The notes below the pieces were generated by a model. The model was not told the origin of the DNA and did not search any database. It saw only the letters and a program-made list of their open reading frames with translations. This document shows, one piece after another, positions 10,928 through 60,357 of a DNA stretch of 64,000 nucleotides. Positions within the stretch are counted from its first letter, which is position 1; each line of letters opens with the position of its first letter. Source of the DNA: Eledone cirrhosa (Eukaryota); contig OZ024743.1 of NCBI GenBank assembly GCA_964016885.1, forward strand, positions 120,466,001 to 120,530,000. Reading direction: 5' to 3'. The translations under genes were made by a program, and so were the position numbers.

Positions 10928-11044
10928 ATTATAAGGATTTTCTGTCCTAAGTTTGAGCTCTTACCGTTTCGACAGCAAGTGACTTACTTATTTGCTCTCG
11001 AAATGGTAAGAGCTCAACCTTAGGGCAGTAAAATCCTTATAAAT
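10928..11044. mobile_element. Older palindromic element related to family A (hammerhead 3'-half fold-back)
   Basis: Inverted arms ttataaggatttt..gagctcttaccgtttcga / tcgaaatggtaagagctc..aaaatccttataa. Confidence 0.65.
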
Positions 11045-13435: not shown

Positions 13436-13945
13436 ACATCTAACGCATTACAAAGTTTGCATGCTATTAAATAAATGAGACTGGTAAAGTGCAGCTAAAA
13501 TGAAATGCATCGTAGTGCTGTGAATTTGGTGCGGTTATTGACACAAGACCATCTGAAACTCTAGCACTCTCATAAATTATCAAAGTTATTAAAATGTAAT
13601 TTTAAATACCATGAATGATATTCAGCATAGACGTACTGTCAATATATTTAAGGAATGAATAAGAGAAGCCTTTCAGTATATAAATTGCCAATTTATCTAA
13701 ACATGAAAAATATAAAGCTAATATATTTTTGAAATTATTACGCTTCATTCAAAGTTGTATATTTGAAAAAAAAAAACCAACAACATATTCCTACCATATA
13801 ATATATATATATATATATATATATAGACAAAATATATATATATATATTTCGTTTTTGAAAACGTGTGTTGAAACCGATATTGTTGTACTTTGGGAGGGTC
13901 ATGTTGCCTATAAGAAACACACGCAACATGACCCTCCCAAAGTAT

Positions 13946-14021
<76 letters not shown>

Positions 14022-20603: not shown

Positions 20604-20607
<4 letters not shown>

Positions 20608-22910: not shown

Positions 22911-23067
22911 GCATATTATAGGTGATTCGGTGATTTACTAGTGATAGTACCAATATGAGCACTCGATACAGAATTAGAGTGCATGTAGTAAGAAAAAAAA
23001 CAATGAAATTTAATTAACATGTTTTTATTGATTATCGACCTGTTATGTACGTTTCACAGGTAATTGG

Positions 23068-23222
23068 ATCAAGGTCAGCCATGGAAGCTATGGACCGACA
23101 GCATCGATCAACTCGTCAGACTTGGTGATTCAATATACTCTGTTTTTTCTTTGTTGAATCACAATGTCTGACGAGCAGATGGATGCTGGAATCTGGCCCA
23201 TAGATTCCATAAGTGACCTTGA
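23068..23222. mobile_element. Old inverted-repeat element with hammerhead-like CTGACGA arms
   Basis: tcaaggtca..atggaa.ctatgg..cagcatc.atc..ctcgtcagac is mirrored by gtctgacgagcagatggatgctg..ccatagattccat..tgaccttga. Confidence 0.55.
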
Positions 23223-23368
23223 GCAAAGCATTTATGAAACGTACGTAACAGGTCTATAATCAAAATAAACATGCAAACGATAGGGATGTCAACATGAATG
23301 AACCTGTTATTTTTATCTAAACACTTTTTTTCCAATTCCACCCCACCCGTCCCTTCAATCTATCTTAT

Positions 23369-23718: not shown

Positions 23719-26116
23719 TATAGGAAAATAGGGAGAAAAAGACGATTATTATGAAGAAAATTATATTTTTTTCCCTTTTATTTTTTTCTCTTTTTTTCTG
23801 GGTTAGAAAATGTTTAAAACAAAATATTTTACTTTGTGTGAAGTATTAAGGTATTAGTTAATTTATTAATTAATTAACAATGGCATTTATTTATTTATTT
23901 ATATATTTAATAATTGTATATTACCGGTTTCAGCATTTTATGCATTATCAAAGGGGGGAATTTGTATTGGTGTAAAATGTTGGTGATGTTGAACATCCCG
24001 CCTCCCAACAACACTTAATAATGAACATACCCCACTAGTAACCTTTGATGTCATCAATCTATATTCCAATATCCCACACAACCTAGGTATAGAGGCAATA
24101 CAATTCTGGCTTGACAATTTCTCTAGCGAACTTCCACAGCGCATCACTAAAGAATTTGTGTTGGAGGGACTCAAATTCATCTTGGAAAACAACTTCTTCG
24201 AATTCGATGCAAAATACTACAGACAGAAATCTGAAACTGCCATGGGCACGAAAGTAGCCCCCCTCATACGCCAATCTTGTCATGGGATATTTGGAAACCA
24301 CTCTCTACCGCAAAGTTCTAGACAAATACGGTAACCACTTCTAACTACACATAGAAAAAAACTGGAAGAGATATCTGGACGACTTCTTCATCCTCTAGCA
24401 TGAAAGTATAGAATGACTGATTGAGTTTACAACCCTTCTAAATGGACTCAACACAAACTTACAATTTACAATGGATTACAACTCCTTTTTCTCGACATCC
24501 TCATCAAGAAAACAAACAACAAAATAGAAACAGACATATACTACAAACCCACAGACTCCAAACAATATCTTCCATTCAACTCATGCCACCCTCGCCATAC
24601 CAAAATAACAATTCCTTATAACCTAGCCAGAAGGATCTGCACAATAGTTTCAGATAAATACACTTGCTACACACGACTAGAAGAATTAACAAACACACTT
24701 ATCAGCAGAAACTACTCACCATCCCTAATCAACAATGAATTCCAACGTGCCCTAAAACTCAACATCCAGGAACTCAGACACCCCAAACCCAGGAATGAAC
24801 CGCAACAGAAAACTCTACCATACATCTCCACACACAACCCCCTCAACAATGAGGCATTCGACACCATCCTCCAGAACATTCCTTTACTAAAAAGAGACCC
24901 AAGAATGAACAAAATCCTCCAAACACACATCATAAAGAGCAAAAGACAACCTAAATCCATAAAAAACATCCTCACTCAAGCCAAAATCCAACCAACCCTC
25001 ACAATTTTCCCTACAGTAAAAAAATGCGGAAGCCCAACTGTGGCATATGTATAAATCTAATAGAAGATTCAACATTCCATTTTAAACAAGGACAACATTT
25101 CACAGTTAAACACAACTTTACATGTGCATCTGAAAACCTAATCTATGTTTTGACCTGCTCAGTTTGTCAAGAGCACTACATAGGACAGACAAAAACAGCC
25201 TCCGACAACGTCCATAGATCACAAATCAAAATACAAGAATACAGAAAATTGCTTTTAGTGAACATATCGCCAATTGTACACCTAACAAACACCCAAACTT
25301 TAAAATTTTCCCCATTTACAAATTCATAGACAACGCTTCTTTCATCCATCGTACCAATAAGGAAACGTACTTCTTTAACAAATTCCAACCTCTACTTAAT
25401 GGACTAAACTTCGGACTAAACAAAAACTGGAACGAACAATGAACCAAAACCAAATGCCTATGTTATCTAAAGAGTTACATCCCTTACACCCAACCTAATC
25501 CTTTTACTTATATAAATGAATTACCCTGTCTCATTTCTCTCTCCCCTACCTGACCCTGCATATTAACTCCGCCTGCATATTAACTCTCTAAAAAGGGAAA
25601 TCATATCAAACCCCAGACTCCCATTTGCCTCCATCATGGATCAACTAAGCACTCTTGCACATTTTGAACTGCTTATTAACACATTTCGAACTGCTTATCT
25701 TCAAGAACTATGCCTGTAAATAATATCATTTTTTCTTTCCCATTACCTTATCATGTTCCACATTAACCCCTTTTTTTTCGTTTTTCTTTTTACTTCAAAA
25801 ACCTTGTTTGTAAATAACATTATTCTTCACGACACATGTTCAACATGTTCAACATCACCAACATTTTCCACCAATCAAATTCCCCCGATTGATAATGCAT
25901 AAAATGGTGAAACCGGTAATAGACAACTATTAAATATATTAATAAATAAATAAATGCCTTTGTTAATTAATAAATAAATTAACTAATACCTTAACACTTC
26001 ACACAAAGTAAAATATTTTGTTTTAAACATTTTCTAACCCAGAAAAAAGAGAAAAAAATAAAAGGGAAAAAATATATTTTTCTTCCTAATAATCGTCTTT
26101 TTCTACCTATTTTCAT
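23719..26116 (+). mobile_element. 5'-truncated Penelope-like retroelement (Neptune-like) with inverted pseudo-LTRs
   Basis: RT motifs LVTFDVINLYSNIPH, TAMGTKVAP, WKRYLDDFF, DIYYKPTDSKQYL..SCHP. Cys linker KPNCGIC. GIY-YIG LIYVLTCSVCQEHYIGQT. Frameshifts and stops present. ~275-bp inverted repeats at 23719-23996 and 25845-26116, flanked by microsatellites. Confidence 0.93.
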
Positions 26117-27286: not shown

Positions 27287-27288
<2 letters not shown>

Positions 27289-27519
27289 CGAAGGAAGTGT
27301 GGTAAGGAACCAGATGGACCATAACGCACCAAAGTACTCAATACTTAGGGTAGTAGAGTGGGTAATAGGAACAAGTATGACCCCGACGGCAGAGCTCAAG
27401 CCGTTTCGACGGCTAATTCTGGACAAATTAGCCGTCGAAACGTTCTGGACGAATTAGCCGTCCAGAATTAGCCGCCGAAACGGCTTGAGCTCTGCCGCCG
27501 GGGTCATACTTGTTCCTAT
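27287..27519 (-). mobile_element. Family A fold-back element with scrambled centre
   Basis: Tail on the left. The centre has three 'aattagccg(t/c)c' units. Confidence 0.88.
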
Positions 27520-27533
27520 TATATATATATATA

Positions 27534-27743
27534 TAGGAACGAGTAGGACCCCGACGGCTGAGCTCAAGCCGTTTCGACGGCTAATTCTGGACTAAAAAAA
27601 AAAAAAAAAAAAAATTAGCCGTCGAAACGGCTTGAGCTCTGCCGTAGGGGTCATACTCGTTCCTATTACCCACTCTACTACCCTAAGTATTGAGTACTTT
27701 GGTGCATTATGGTCCACCTGGTTTCTTACCACATTTCCTTCGT

Positions 27744-28464: not shown

Positions 28465-28595
28465 GATCCCGCGTTAAATCGGGTGTAAACAAGGTACTCA
28501 ATACGTTACTAGAGTGAAAACATCAATATTTAATATATAAATGGCTTCTACAGGACTAGAACTGTTCCACGAGTATGAAAGCATCAGGAAAACCC
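28465..28595 (-). mobile_element. Family B hammerhead element (degenerate core)
   Basis: 'ggtactcaatac..atggcttctacaggactagaactgttcc..gaaagcatcagg'. Confidence 0.7.
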
Positions 28596-28606
28596 CATCA
28601 CTGTTG

Positions 28607-28732
<126 letters not shown>

Positions 28733-37229: not shown

Positions 37230-37329
37230 ATTACATAAACTTATATATTGATATATATGTCTAAATGAACAGACATACACATATACACACACACATATAT
37301 ATATGTATATATATATATATAAAAATAAA

Positions 37330-37409
37330 AGATTAAAGTTTAAGCAAAGAATCGCTGCTTTCACCCTTAACGGGATCTTCCATTAAGGGTGAAAGCAGCG
37401 ATTTTTTGC

Positions 37410-37412
<3 letters not shown>
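37330..37412. mobile_element. Fold-back copy of the 29242 repeat in (TA)n
   Basis: taagcaaagaatcgctgctttcacccttaa / ttaagggtgaaagcagcgattttttgctta. Confidence 0.7.
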
Positions 37413-37474
<62 letters not shown>

Positions 37475-37672
37475 TGGGTATGAGTCCCTGGTTCAAACAG
37501 GGGTACCACAGTTAGTAAGGTACATTAGTAGAGAGAAAAGTTCTTGTTTAAAAAAAGGAATGGCTTCTACATGATTAGATATGTTTCATTCAAAAGAAAT
37601 CATCAGGTAAACTTTCCAGATGATTTCTTTTGAATGAAAAGTTCTAGTCGTGTAGAATACATTTCTTAAACA
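37475..37672 (-). mobile_element. Family B palindromic hammerhead element
   Basis: Two opposed copies of tgatttcttttgaatgaaa. The minus arm has core CTGATGA..GAAA-CAT..ATG-TA, with weak stem I. Confidence 0.75.
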
Positions 37673-40429: not shown

Positions 40430-40700
40430 TATTACGGTTGGACTATCCTCTGAAATCGGATGCGAACCACTGTTAGAAAGGTACTCAATACGTTTGTAGA
40501 ATACAAACAATTATTTTATATGGAAGTGACCTTTACAGGACTAGATCTGTTTCATTCGTAAGAAATCATCAGGAGTTTCGAATGACACAGTTCGAGTCCT
40601 GTAAATATCATTACCATATAAAATAATTGTTTATATTCTAGAAAAGTATTGAGTACCTTTTTAACTCTGCTTACCTCCTGGTATCCATTGGATATCCGCT
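40430..40700. mobile_element. Family B palindromic hammerhead element with tails on both arms
   Basis: aggtactcaatac..aaacaattattttatatgg..tacaggact / agtcctgta..ccatataaaataattgttt..gtattgagtacct. A tail-only relative lies at 40085-40180. Confidence 0.78.
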
Positions 40701-44381: not shown

Positions 44382-44421
<40 letters not shown>

Positions 44422-44429
44422 TGTATATA

Positions 44430-44614
44430 AGTTATTCCGGGTTTAACCGGAGGTAACCACAGTAAGTAAAGTACTCAATACATTGCAGAGTATAAAAGTT
44501 TTAATACAGAAGAGCTTCTACAGGACTAGAACTGTTTCATTCGTGAGAAATCATCAGGAAGCTTCTTGATGATTTCTCACGGATGAAACAGTTCTAGTCC
44601 TGTAGAAGCTCTTT
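44430..44614 (-). mobile_element. Family B element: two opposed hammerheads plus tail
   Basis: Palindrome centred on gaagcttc (44558-44565). Tail with gtactcaatac on the left. Flanked by (TA)n. Confidence 0.85.
44513..44563 (-). ncRNA. Type I hammerhead ribozyme, intact core
   Basis: Minus strand: agcttc-CTGATGA-T TTC tcac GAA T-GAAA-CAG ttctagtc CTG-TA-gaagct. Confidence 0.8.
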
Positions 44615-44627
44615 TATATATATATAT

Positions 44628-44820
44628 AACGAAGGATATGTGGTAAAGAACCAAGTGGACCATAACGCACCAAAGTACTCAATACTTAGGGTAGTAGAGT
44701 GGGTAATAGGAACGAGTAGGACCCCGACGGCTGAGCTCAACCCGTCTCGACGGCTAATTCTGTCCAGAATTAGCCGTCGAAACGGCTTGAGCTCAGCCGT
44801 CGGGGTCCTACTCTTTCCTA
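44628..44820 (-). mobile_element. Family A fold-back element
   Basis: Tail on the left. Arms meet at aattctgtccagaatt. Confidence 0.88.
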
Positions 44821-48104: not shown

Positions 48105-48163
48105 AATGTAGAAATTGTTCTAGAACTGTTTTTCATTCGAAGGAAATCATCAGGCTTTCCTGA
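48105..48163 (-). mobile_element. Family B remnant
   Basis: ctagaactgtttttcattcgaaggaaatcatcagg. Confidence 0.65.
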
Positions 48164-52254: not shown

Positions 52255-52373
52255 AATATTAAAACAATGAAATTAAACAAAAAAACGGTTAATTCATAGT
52301 AAAACTCATTATTTTTAGAAATAATGAGTTTTACTATGAATTAACCGTTTTTTGTTTAATTTCATTGTTTTAA

Positions 52374-52378
<5 letters not shown>
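52255..52378. repeat. Near-perfect ~60-bp-arm AT-rich palindrome next to (TA)n
   Basis: aatattaaaacaatgaaattaaac..gtaaaactcattattt / aaataatgagttttac..gtttaatttcattgttttaatatt. Confidence 0.9.
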
Positions 52379-52460
<82 letters not shown>

Positions 52461-52467
<7 letters not shown>

Positions 52468-52640
52468 TTCCAAGTATTAACAAAATAGATGTTCTTGTGA
52501 TCAATTATATTTTATTATACATATATCAGAGTTACTGAATTAAGTTCAACAGTACGTCCTCATCAGATACAATAAAATCTGTATAATAAAATATAATTGA
52601 TCACAAGAATATCTATTTTGTTAATATCTTGAATTAATAT
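52461..52640. mobile_element. Inverted-repeat element with a CTGATGAGGAC motif in the spacer
   Basis: Arms attaacaaaatagat.ttcttgtgatcaattatattttattataca mirrored at 52580-52626. The spacer has gtcctcatcag. Confidence 0.6.
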
Positions 52641-59833: not shown

Positions 59834-60202
59834 ACCCACATGCATATATTAAATACAATTTGCATTTTGGCATATTTACACGCGCTTTGAAGTGTTTGGA
59901 AAGATGTCCCCCTCTCCACATGTACTTACATAGAAACTAATGAACACCAACATATACTAATCTATTATACAATTTTACAAGATCACACATACTTGCCTGT
60001 ATACATAAATACTTATTAGTGTTAGGCGGCAAGCAGTATGTCACTATGTGCAGATAATTTACACAATTCTATTCTTTTCACAGTTATGGAAAATATAAAC
60101 TCATAAAAAAAAGAAACCCACGCACAAAAGAAGATAAACATCTTTTTAAAAATATGTACATATAAAAGAACATGTCGAATATATATATATATATATATAT
60201 AA

Positions 60203-60357
60203 TATAGAAATGGCTTCTACAGGACTAGAACTGTTTCATTCGGGAGAAATCATCAGAAAGCAGTCCTGTAGAAGCCATTTCTATATTAAATATTTATACT
60301 TTGTTATGTATTGAGAGTACCTTACTGTGGTTACCCCGATTGAACCTGGGATAAACA
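60203..60357. mobile_element. Family B element with an intact hammerhead on the minus strand (60213-60261) and tail on the plus arm
   Basis: Minus strand: gcttt-CTGATGA-T TTC tccc GAA T-GAAA-CAG ttctagtc CTG-TA-gaagc. Confidence 0.82.

Follow-up and report, generated by a model that had tools for sequence, protein, structure and literature searches.

Inverted and truncated copies, tails, and (TA)n targets have all been described for Penelope-like elements (PLEs) (PMC8557442, PMC3846280). Pairs of hammerhead motifs on opposite strands, 100-700 bp apart, have likewise been published and tied to truncated PLEs, and the known animal PLE hammerheads cleave poorly (PMC4209133). A rotifer pLTR carries a TATA box and an Inr-like motif, and self-priming on an antisense template has been proposed (PMC3846280). 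For the Poseidon element PAc of Anolis, reverse transcription in vitro initiates internally at two sites, both target strands are extended, and uncleaved RNA serves as the template (PMC11167929); inverted joints are not treated in the accessible part of that paper. As far as the available text of PMC3846280 and PMC8557442 goes, how head-to-head repeats form, whether sense or antisense RNA is used, and what the hammerhead does are left open, and the accessible portion of PMC13282606 mentions neither ribozymes nor palindromes. An explanation of where the centre of an opposite-strand pair falls was not found in print. Our literature search, conducted outside subscription papers, found no paper placing a Penelope inversion joint at a capped start or deriving such inversions from run-off products.

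Here we analyzed a palindromic insertion in a 64-kb window of the Eledone cirrhosa genome (the window being the whole stretch of DNA studied). The insertion at 44430-44619 is almost certainly the stub of a Penelope-like element. Its parts are as follows, with arm positions numbered throughout from the hammerhead cleavage site.

44386 to 44429, no strand: left flank, (TA)n-rich target sequence
44430 to 44619, minus (sense strand): whole insertion, almost certainly a Penelope-like stub, made of an inverted tail-less arm, a hammerhead, and a one-sided tail
44430 to 44503, minus: one-sided tail; in full elements, the 5' leader between the ribozyme and the ORF start
44474 to 44490, minus: small bulged hairpin motif in the tail, common to the neighbouring repeat family
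44504 to 44619: palindrome of two 58-nt arms with 4 mismatches, centre GAAGCTTC
44513 to 44563, minus: type I hammerhead whose core is intact; cleavage site at 44519/44518
44560 to 44563, no strand: AGCT common to both arms, position -45 from the cleavage site; putative capped start and arm joint
44560 to 44610, plus: inverted hammerhead copy, with C3-to-U at 44566 and G8 unchanged
44615 to 44628, no strand: right flank, (TA)n target; a different repeat begins at about 44629

The stub is 185 bp long, and its right end merges into (TA)n at 44615-44619; the (TA)n target makes any target-site duplication unreadable. The palindrome is centred where the initial annotation had placed it, and its hairpin has z-scores of -18 and -20, with 0 of 200 shuffles equally stable. 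The two motifs that this annotation had called are indeed hammerheads belonging to a family, one with an intact core on the minus strand and one with the C3-to-U change on the plus strand, the latter also bearing an A-to-G change in helix II at 44582. The minus arm contains the CUGANGA, GAAA, and NUH elements and the three helices of a type I hammerhead, whereas a search of Rfam at the gathering score gave 0 matches in the 64-kb window. Helix I is 6 bp (AGCTTC/GAAGCT), helix II is 3 bp and closed by U-U, and helix III has 4 bp and a loop containing the palindrome CTAG. The plus-strand copy, failing in the core at C3, is likely dead. The type I topology, 6-bp helix I, and palindromic loop III match the metazoan PLE pLTR hammerheads described in PMC4209133, which differ in the G10.1-C11.1 pair that is missing here and in the lengths and closure of helices II and III. 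The two motifs of this insertion overlap by 4 nt, in contrast to the published spacing of 100-700 bp. The insertion is asymmetric: the minus arm extends to about +89 (44430), and the plus arm ends between +11 and +15.

The ribozyme and tail sequence of the stub sits at both ends of full RT/GIY-YIG elements elsewhere in the 3.0-Gb genome. A first search yielded 1625 candidates; it used the palindrome as the query, was biased toward symmetric copies, and was excluded from the break-point counts. Exact matches to a 33-nt tag numbered 324 for the stub's own subfamily and 4520 for a sister subfamily, and searching with the tail only recovered copies with arms ranging from ~10 nt to kilobases and leading upstream to ORFs. 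Within the own subfamily, the long copies L140 and L142 have an endonuclease fragment flanked on either side by the ribozyme, and just one of their arms bears the tail; in L211 the tail continues straight into an ORF start. Full elements of the sister subfamily were found at L170, L171, and L175-L178, the last four being pLTR-ORF-pLTR units with direct pLTRs and a 713-aa protein; inverted copies occur at L170, L171, L105, and L106. The L175 ORF carries YRDD and GIY-YIG, the Pfam GIY-YIG matches falling below the cut-off (E=5e-4, E=0.13). The tail forms the 5' leader of the sister-subfamily elements, whose start codon is found 181 nt downstream of -45. The stub's sense arm shares 95% identity with the ORF-linked arms of L140 and L142, and 92% with L175.

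Searching with the parent protein gave 144 matches at 93-100% identity, mostly stop-free over the matched part, which argues that the wider family has been recently active. A PDB sequence search with this protein returned nothing meaningful. In L140, L142, and L175-L178 the 3' UTR contains extended (TA)n/(CA)n repeats, which the element itself targets, and has taken up other repeats. A Hydra-like ORF of more distant kinship occurs at L144 (4943-6010, minus); it shares 45-57% identity with the L175 protein and lies ~4 kb upstream of an own-subfamily pLTR, either as a nested insertion or as a swapped ORF.

Judged by its protein motifs, the parent element appears to be Hydra-like. Shared with the Hydra clade as described in the accessible text of PMC8557442 are the C-terminal GIY-YIG, DKT in place of DKG (SDKTK at residue 115), the CxCx5C linker, the C-terminal CxxC and CxH (residues 566, 666, and 694 for the three), the (TA)n target, and a hammerhead. 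As in the clade, the protein has no CCHH, and its GIY-YIG core has no internal CxxC. The clade is characterized by RWK and by a lack of GxKF/Y; this protein has RWR at residue 38 and no GxK[FY]. The unit is ~4.8 kb, with a long microsatellite-rich 3' UTR, compared to less than 3 kb for the clade, a size that is a general tendency rather than diagnostic (PMC8557442). In L175-L178 the hammerheads are ~4.8-5.7 kb apart, and some of these copies may contain later insertions. The hammerhead differs from the one given for Hydra-1_Obim in the supplement of PMC8557442; this is a different family.

The family resembles the endonuclease-bearing PLEs described in PMC8557442 and PMC3846280 in its pLTR-ORF-pLTR tandem, adjacent inverted truncated copy, one-end tail, pLTR hammerhead, and (TA)n target. 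It differs in tail length (~65-75 nt here, 30-40 in the published elements) and in its commonest product, which is a ~190-bp stub joined at what appears to be a TATA-linked, cap-marked start. The tail is restricted to one end: the inverted arm ends between +8 and +35 in all short copies scored in the two subfamilies (43/43 and 29/29), and two-tailed copies are few (L011, L216, L310). (TA)4 was found after the tail of 115/129 copies, compared to a window background of 14%. A MITE or other DNA transposon was rejected, as the ends are unequal and the centre varies, rather than there being two equal TIRs with fixed ends. Short type I hammerhead repeats tied to PLEs are also a feature of metazoan non-LTR retrozymes (bioRxiv 10.64898/2026.07.22.740005; PMC7229834). 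Those, in the sections available, are head-to-tail tandem units, and we rejected this identity for a head-to-head stub continuous with an ORF-bearing element.

Five relatives within the window, named in the initial annotation, were all found; they proved older and diverged (70-90% identical), and none has two intact cores by eye.

28466 to 28612, minus: older relative, a single arm with tail, damaged core, and a remnant of the inverted arm
37480 to 37667, minus: older relative, two arms, the core of the inverted arm damaged
40440 to 40678, minus: older relative, two long arms, one core partly deleted
48105 to 48163, minus: older relative, a fragment
60200 to 60354, plus: older relative, core in the inverted arm; the tail arm begins only ~9 nt before the cleavage site

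The window also holds a second, unrelated Penelope-like element at 23724-26114, which we take to be Neptune-like from its motifs. Its RT is broken and its GIY-YIG core contains CxxC. One pLTR, at 23724-23996, is inverted, and each of the pLTRs carries a minimal hammerhead that has decayed, in a textbook layout. Its ORF at 24425-25329 was considered as the stub's parent and rejected, giving no tblastn match with the parent protein. The repeat family that adjoins the stub at 44629-44818 has the same layout of a tail and a fold-back in (TA)n and recurs at 20606, 27288-27743, 41425, 41778, 46248, 50180, 51740, 53294, and 58130. GAAAC, a palindromic-loop helix, and GTC are present in this family, and CTGANGA is not visible. 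The bulged hairpin motif of the tail has 10 matches in the window, where 0.01 would be expected, and 8 of the 10 fall in this neighbouring family; the motif may be a signal at which the RT binds or starts. A stretch resembling it by eye stands at the end of the record before Hydra-1_Obim in the PMC8557442 supplement. A third fold-back family (37322-37410, L015, L088) has CTGAAGA and GAAA core boxes and is probably another PLE stub. More local palindromes lie beside microsatellites at 10929-11042, 13881-13949, 23018-23273, 52255-52377, and 52464-52637, and several of these may be stubs of other families.

We then located the upstream break points of copies selected only on +1 to +33. From the 324 own-subfamily tag matches we used 90 in listing order, leaving out C2:413453810 and L310's second arm; the sister sample comprised the first 50 of 4520 matches. 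In the own subfamily, tail arms break at a rate per base of 0.146 at -46 to -43, compared to 0.004 at +1 to -36 and at -47 to -120. The corresponding sister-subfamily rates are 0.140 at this wall, 0.007 (+1 to -36), and 0.003 (-47 to -120). The break rate at the wall is thus ~35-fold above that elsewhere in two subfamilies. The wall is the first base of helix I, and both arms stop there. Inverted arms passing -46 were called automatically in 1/43 and 1/29 short copies, both of which are alignment artefacts by eye, and numerous arms end at -37 to -42 instead of -45. Automated calls were wrong in a few loci (L223, L181, L255; L093, L101), which were kept in the counts. For the older subfamily, a pattern search gave 3 matches, and its wall at -46 comes from query-biased loci read by eye.

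At their other ends, the arms also stop at fixed positions, inverted arms at about +11 to +23 (+15 or +22/+28 when aligned) and tail arms at about +90, indicating two start sites for copying. Breaks within -5 to +1 of the cleavage site occur in only 3/90 and 4/50 copies. This lack of a pile-up led us to reject ribozyme cleavage as the cause of truncation and suggests that most templates were uncleaved.

Copies extending beyond the wall reveal a TATA-like box. Among long own-subfamily copies it lies at -74 in 20/28, nearby in 5, and was not found in 3; all 13 long sister-subfamily copies have one, at -75 or -78 in 12/13, and in the older subfamily it stands 37 nt before C3 in 11 copies. The box is 29-33 nt upstream of the wall, the usual spacing between a TATA box and a transcription start. 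We also counted by hand the base preceding -45 where the flank consists of five A/T bases. In the sister subfamily (first 100 of 376 junctions) this base is G in 47, C in 23, T in 21, and A in 9, and in the own subfamily (68/68) G in 27, C in 19, T in 14, and A in 8. The template base before -45 is C, and the G is therefore untemplated. At a control break point, -38, G was found in 1/100 (first 100 of 211); the excess over this control, from the hand counts, gives P=4e-16 (sister) and P=1e-11 (own). The templated C precedes -45 in 23/100 and 19/68 junctions, indicating that the start is not a single base. We rejected a leftover 7-9-nt inverted stub as the origin of the extra G: this model predicts T before the G in one subfamily and A in the other, and the base is mostly T in both (31/47 and 18/27).

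Untemplated G at complete 5' ends of LINE-1 and SVA has been read as cap copying (PMC4859970). From the wall at helix I, the TATA box 29-33 nt upstream, and the untemplated G, the centre of the palindrome is very probably a capped transcription start. The TATA-less, internal promoter reported for D. virilis Penelope (PMC2377424) counts against a TATA-linked start.

Considering these features together, we regard the palindrome as an extremely 5'-truncated, inverted Penelope-like insertion in (TA)n that probably arose from two run-off cDNAs on capped RNA that became joined. In this proposal, both cut ends of the target would prime reverse transcription near the 5' end of the element's capped RNA, usually on one RNA molecule, and the element protein would begin copying inside the RNA at two sites. 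Position -45 would be the capped Pol II start, where two short cDNAs would run off the RNA. With copying starting inside the 5' leader, the commonest product would be a strong-stop-like run-off cDNA. The cDNA ends would anneal via short homology, here the self-complementary AGCT, and a joint through AGCT would account for the perfect palindrome. Exact symmetric -45/-45 joints were found in 11/43 short inverted own-subfamily copies, which have AGCT, and in 0/29 of the sister subfamily, which has AGAT (P=0.002). The joining of two run-off cDNAs, taken as a step by itself, is likewise likely on these sequence features. Palindrome centres can be deleted after insertion, which can blur the original joints.

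Inversion of LINE-1 is not known to duplicate sequence, whereas the arms here overlap in most cases, which requires that one cDNA displace the other or repeat it. At L078 and L272/L273 the arms barely overlap, the ribozyme being in the inverted arm and the tail arm beginning at or after the cleavage site; this is the outcome expected of plain twin priming without duplication. The proposal otherwise parallels LINE-1 twin priming in that the second target end would prime inside the RNA, and in the untemplated G at complete 5' ends (PMC4859970). It likewise resembles PAc, as described in the accessible part of PMC11167929, in having two internal RT start sites that would define the tail, an AT-rich target, extension of both strands, and uncleaved RNA as the main template. 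The PAc ORF differs in beginning inside the ribozyme (PMC11167929), the start codon here being well downstream of the putative start.

The best-surviving alternative, although an unlikely one, retains the same element and capped start and makes the inverted arm by fold-back: a cDNA from the tail runs off, snaps back, and copies itself, with asymmetry arising from later deletions at the centre. Both arms of one insertion carry the same lineage variants (9/9 and 18/18), suggesting that they derive from one RNA or one source locus; fold-back copying or gene conversion would explain this concordance just as well. Counting against our own proposal, the two arms have different loop II sequences in 9/31 own-subfamily copies, mostly at a CpG. 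Junction overlaps are short, some with small fillers, as fold-back would have it. Fold-back, however, cannot yield a tail-less arm that extends beyond the tail arm on the upstream side, and automated calls place the tail-less arm at least 5 nt further upstream in 4/43 and 9/29 copies (the opposite way in 8 and 8), two of these calls being alignment artefacts and two representing one duplicated insertion. In L105 and L106 the ORF is on the tail-less arm, which is the long one, and a perfect AGCT joint leaves no room for a loop. That either arm can be longer, and that the tail-less arm of L105 and L106 carries the ORF, favours two primers, with the caveat that later deletions could alter arm lengths.

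Self-priming on an antisense transcript, the published model for rotifer Penelope (PMC3846280), accounts for the head-to-head orientation and for palindromes at the joint. It predicts neither a sense-strand wall at TATA+30 nor an untemplated sense-strand G at that wall, and we consider it very improbable here.

We assign a similarly slight probability to the idea that the palindrome is a non-autonomous unit which propagates in this form and is retained for placing a ribozyme in transcripts from either direction, an effect that the initial annotation had suggested for a fresh copy. The 30 loci best matching the palindrome query are nearly all of the exact symmetric form, but these were picked by their likeness to a palindrome. 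In the set selected on the tail side, exact symmetric joints occur in 11/90 and arms run from ~10 nt to kilobases; of the copies sampled, 30/90 and 14/50 are short ones in which both cores are complete. A comparison of core with flank conservation, which that annotation had put forward as a check, further undercut the claim. Scored on copies with the full core region (76/90 own, 38/50 sister), dispersed own-subfamily copies have core mismatches at 27/836 compared to 77/2128 outside the core (P=0.66), and sister-subfamily copies have proportionally more mismatches in the core (18/418) than outside it (20/1064). All core bases are kept in 52/76 own and 25/38 sister copies. The warning that a full hairpin would compete with the ribozyme was well founded: the hairpin is favoured over the ribozyme fold by 66-70 kcal/mol, and on either strand of the whole palindrome the hammerhead pairs have a probability of 0.0. 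The hairpin thus abolishes the ribozyme fold, and the stub has no TATA box. The second motif is a by-product of the Penelope-like mode of insertion.

Least probable of all is that the wall marks a 3' splice site (CAG at -46 to -44), as in D. virilis Penelope, whose intron ends at the helix I 5' end (PMC4209133): a pyrimidine-rich stretch and CAG do precede helix I in the two young subfamilies, but by eye the AG is kept in only 2/11 promoter-retaining copies of the older subfamily while the pyrimidine-purine step at TATA+30 is kept in 10/11, and before -45 there is only target (TA)n plus at most one base, with no common first exon.

Taken by itself, an arm is no more stably folded than its shuffled versions (z +0.9 and +0.7). 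Helix II, with pair probabilities of 0.05-0.07, is weak, and a dimer through loop III is predicted. U-U replaces G10.1-C11.1 in nearly all copies, and the hammerhead is a non-canonical variant that is likely slow. Conservation was seen only between source lineages, as an apparent compensatory change in helix I, with loop II varying and the core constant; these arms were found by a core-based pattern, and the core constancy is partly built in. Of 86 arms, 42 have C-G and 41 have A-T at this helix I pair, a single event between lineages. One source lineage, whose helix I contains a C-A mismatch (L202, L229, L234, L210, and others), accounts for 10/102 promoter-retaining arms, and its spread indicates that a perfect helix I is unneeded for mobility. 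Having neither a TATA box nor a promoter, the copy at 44430-44619 is probably inert. The ribozyme of the source element would form the first 51 nt of the mRNA, such that cleavage would remove the cap. We tentatively propose that it acts as a decapping switch. By the same speculative account, which we rate no higher, self-decapping would end translation, the uncleaved capped RNA would be the insertion template, and strong-stop-like run-off cDNAs, one per target end, would join as the head-to-head repeats typical of the whole group.

Overall, the palindrome is ordinary transposon debris, yet its ends record the insertion reaction. The helix I wall, together with the TATA spacing and the cap-like G, points to a sense template that is capped and to an mRNA whose first base belongs to the ribozyme. 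Many uninterrupted ORFs, together with subfamilies that differ by one base at the RNA start (AGCT and AGAT), make this family a ready test system. If the centre marks the capped first letter of the RNA, both the formation of mirror-image ends and the role of the ribozyme become testable.
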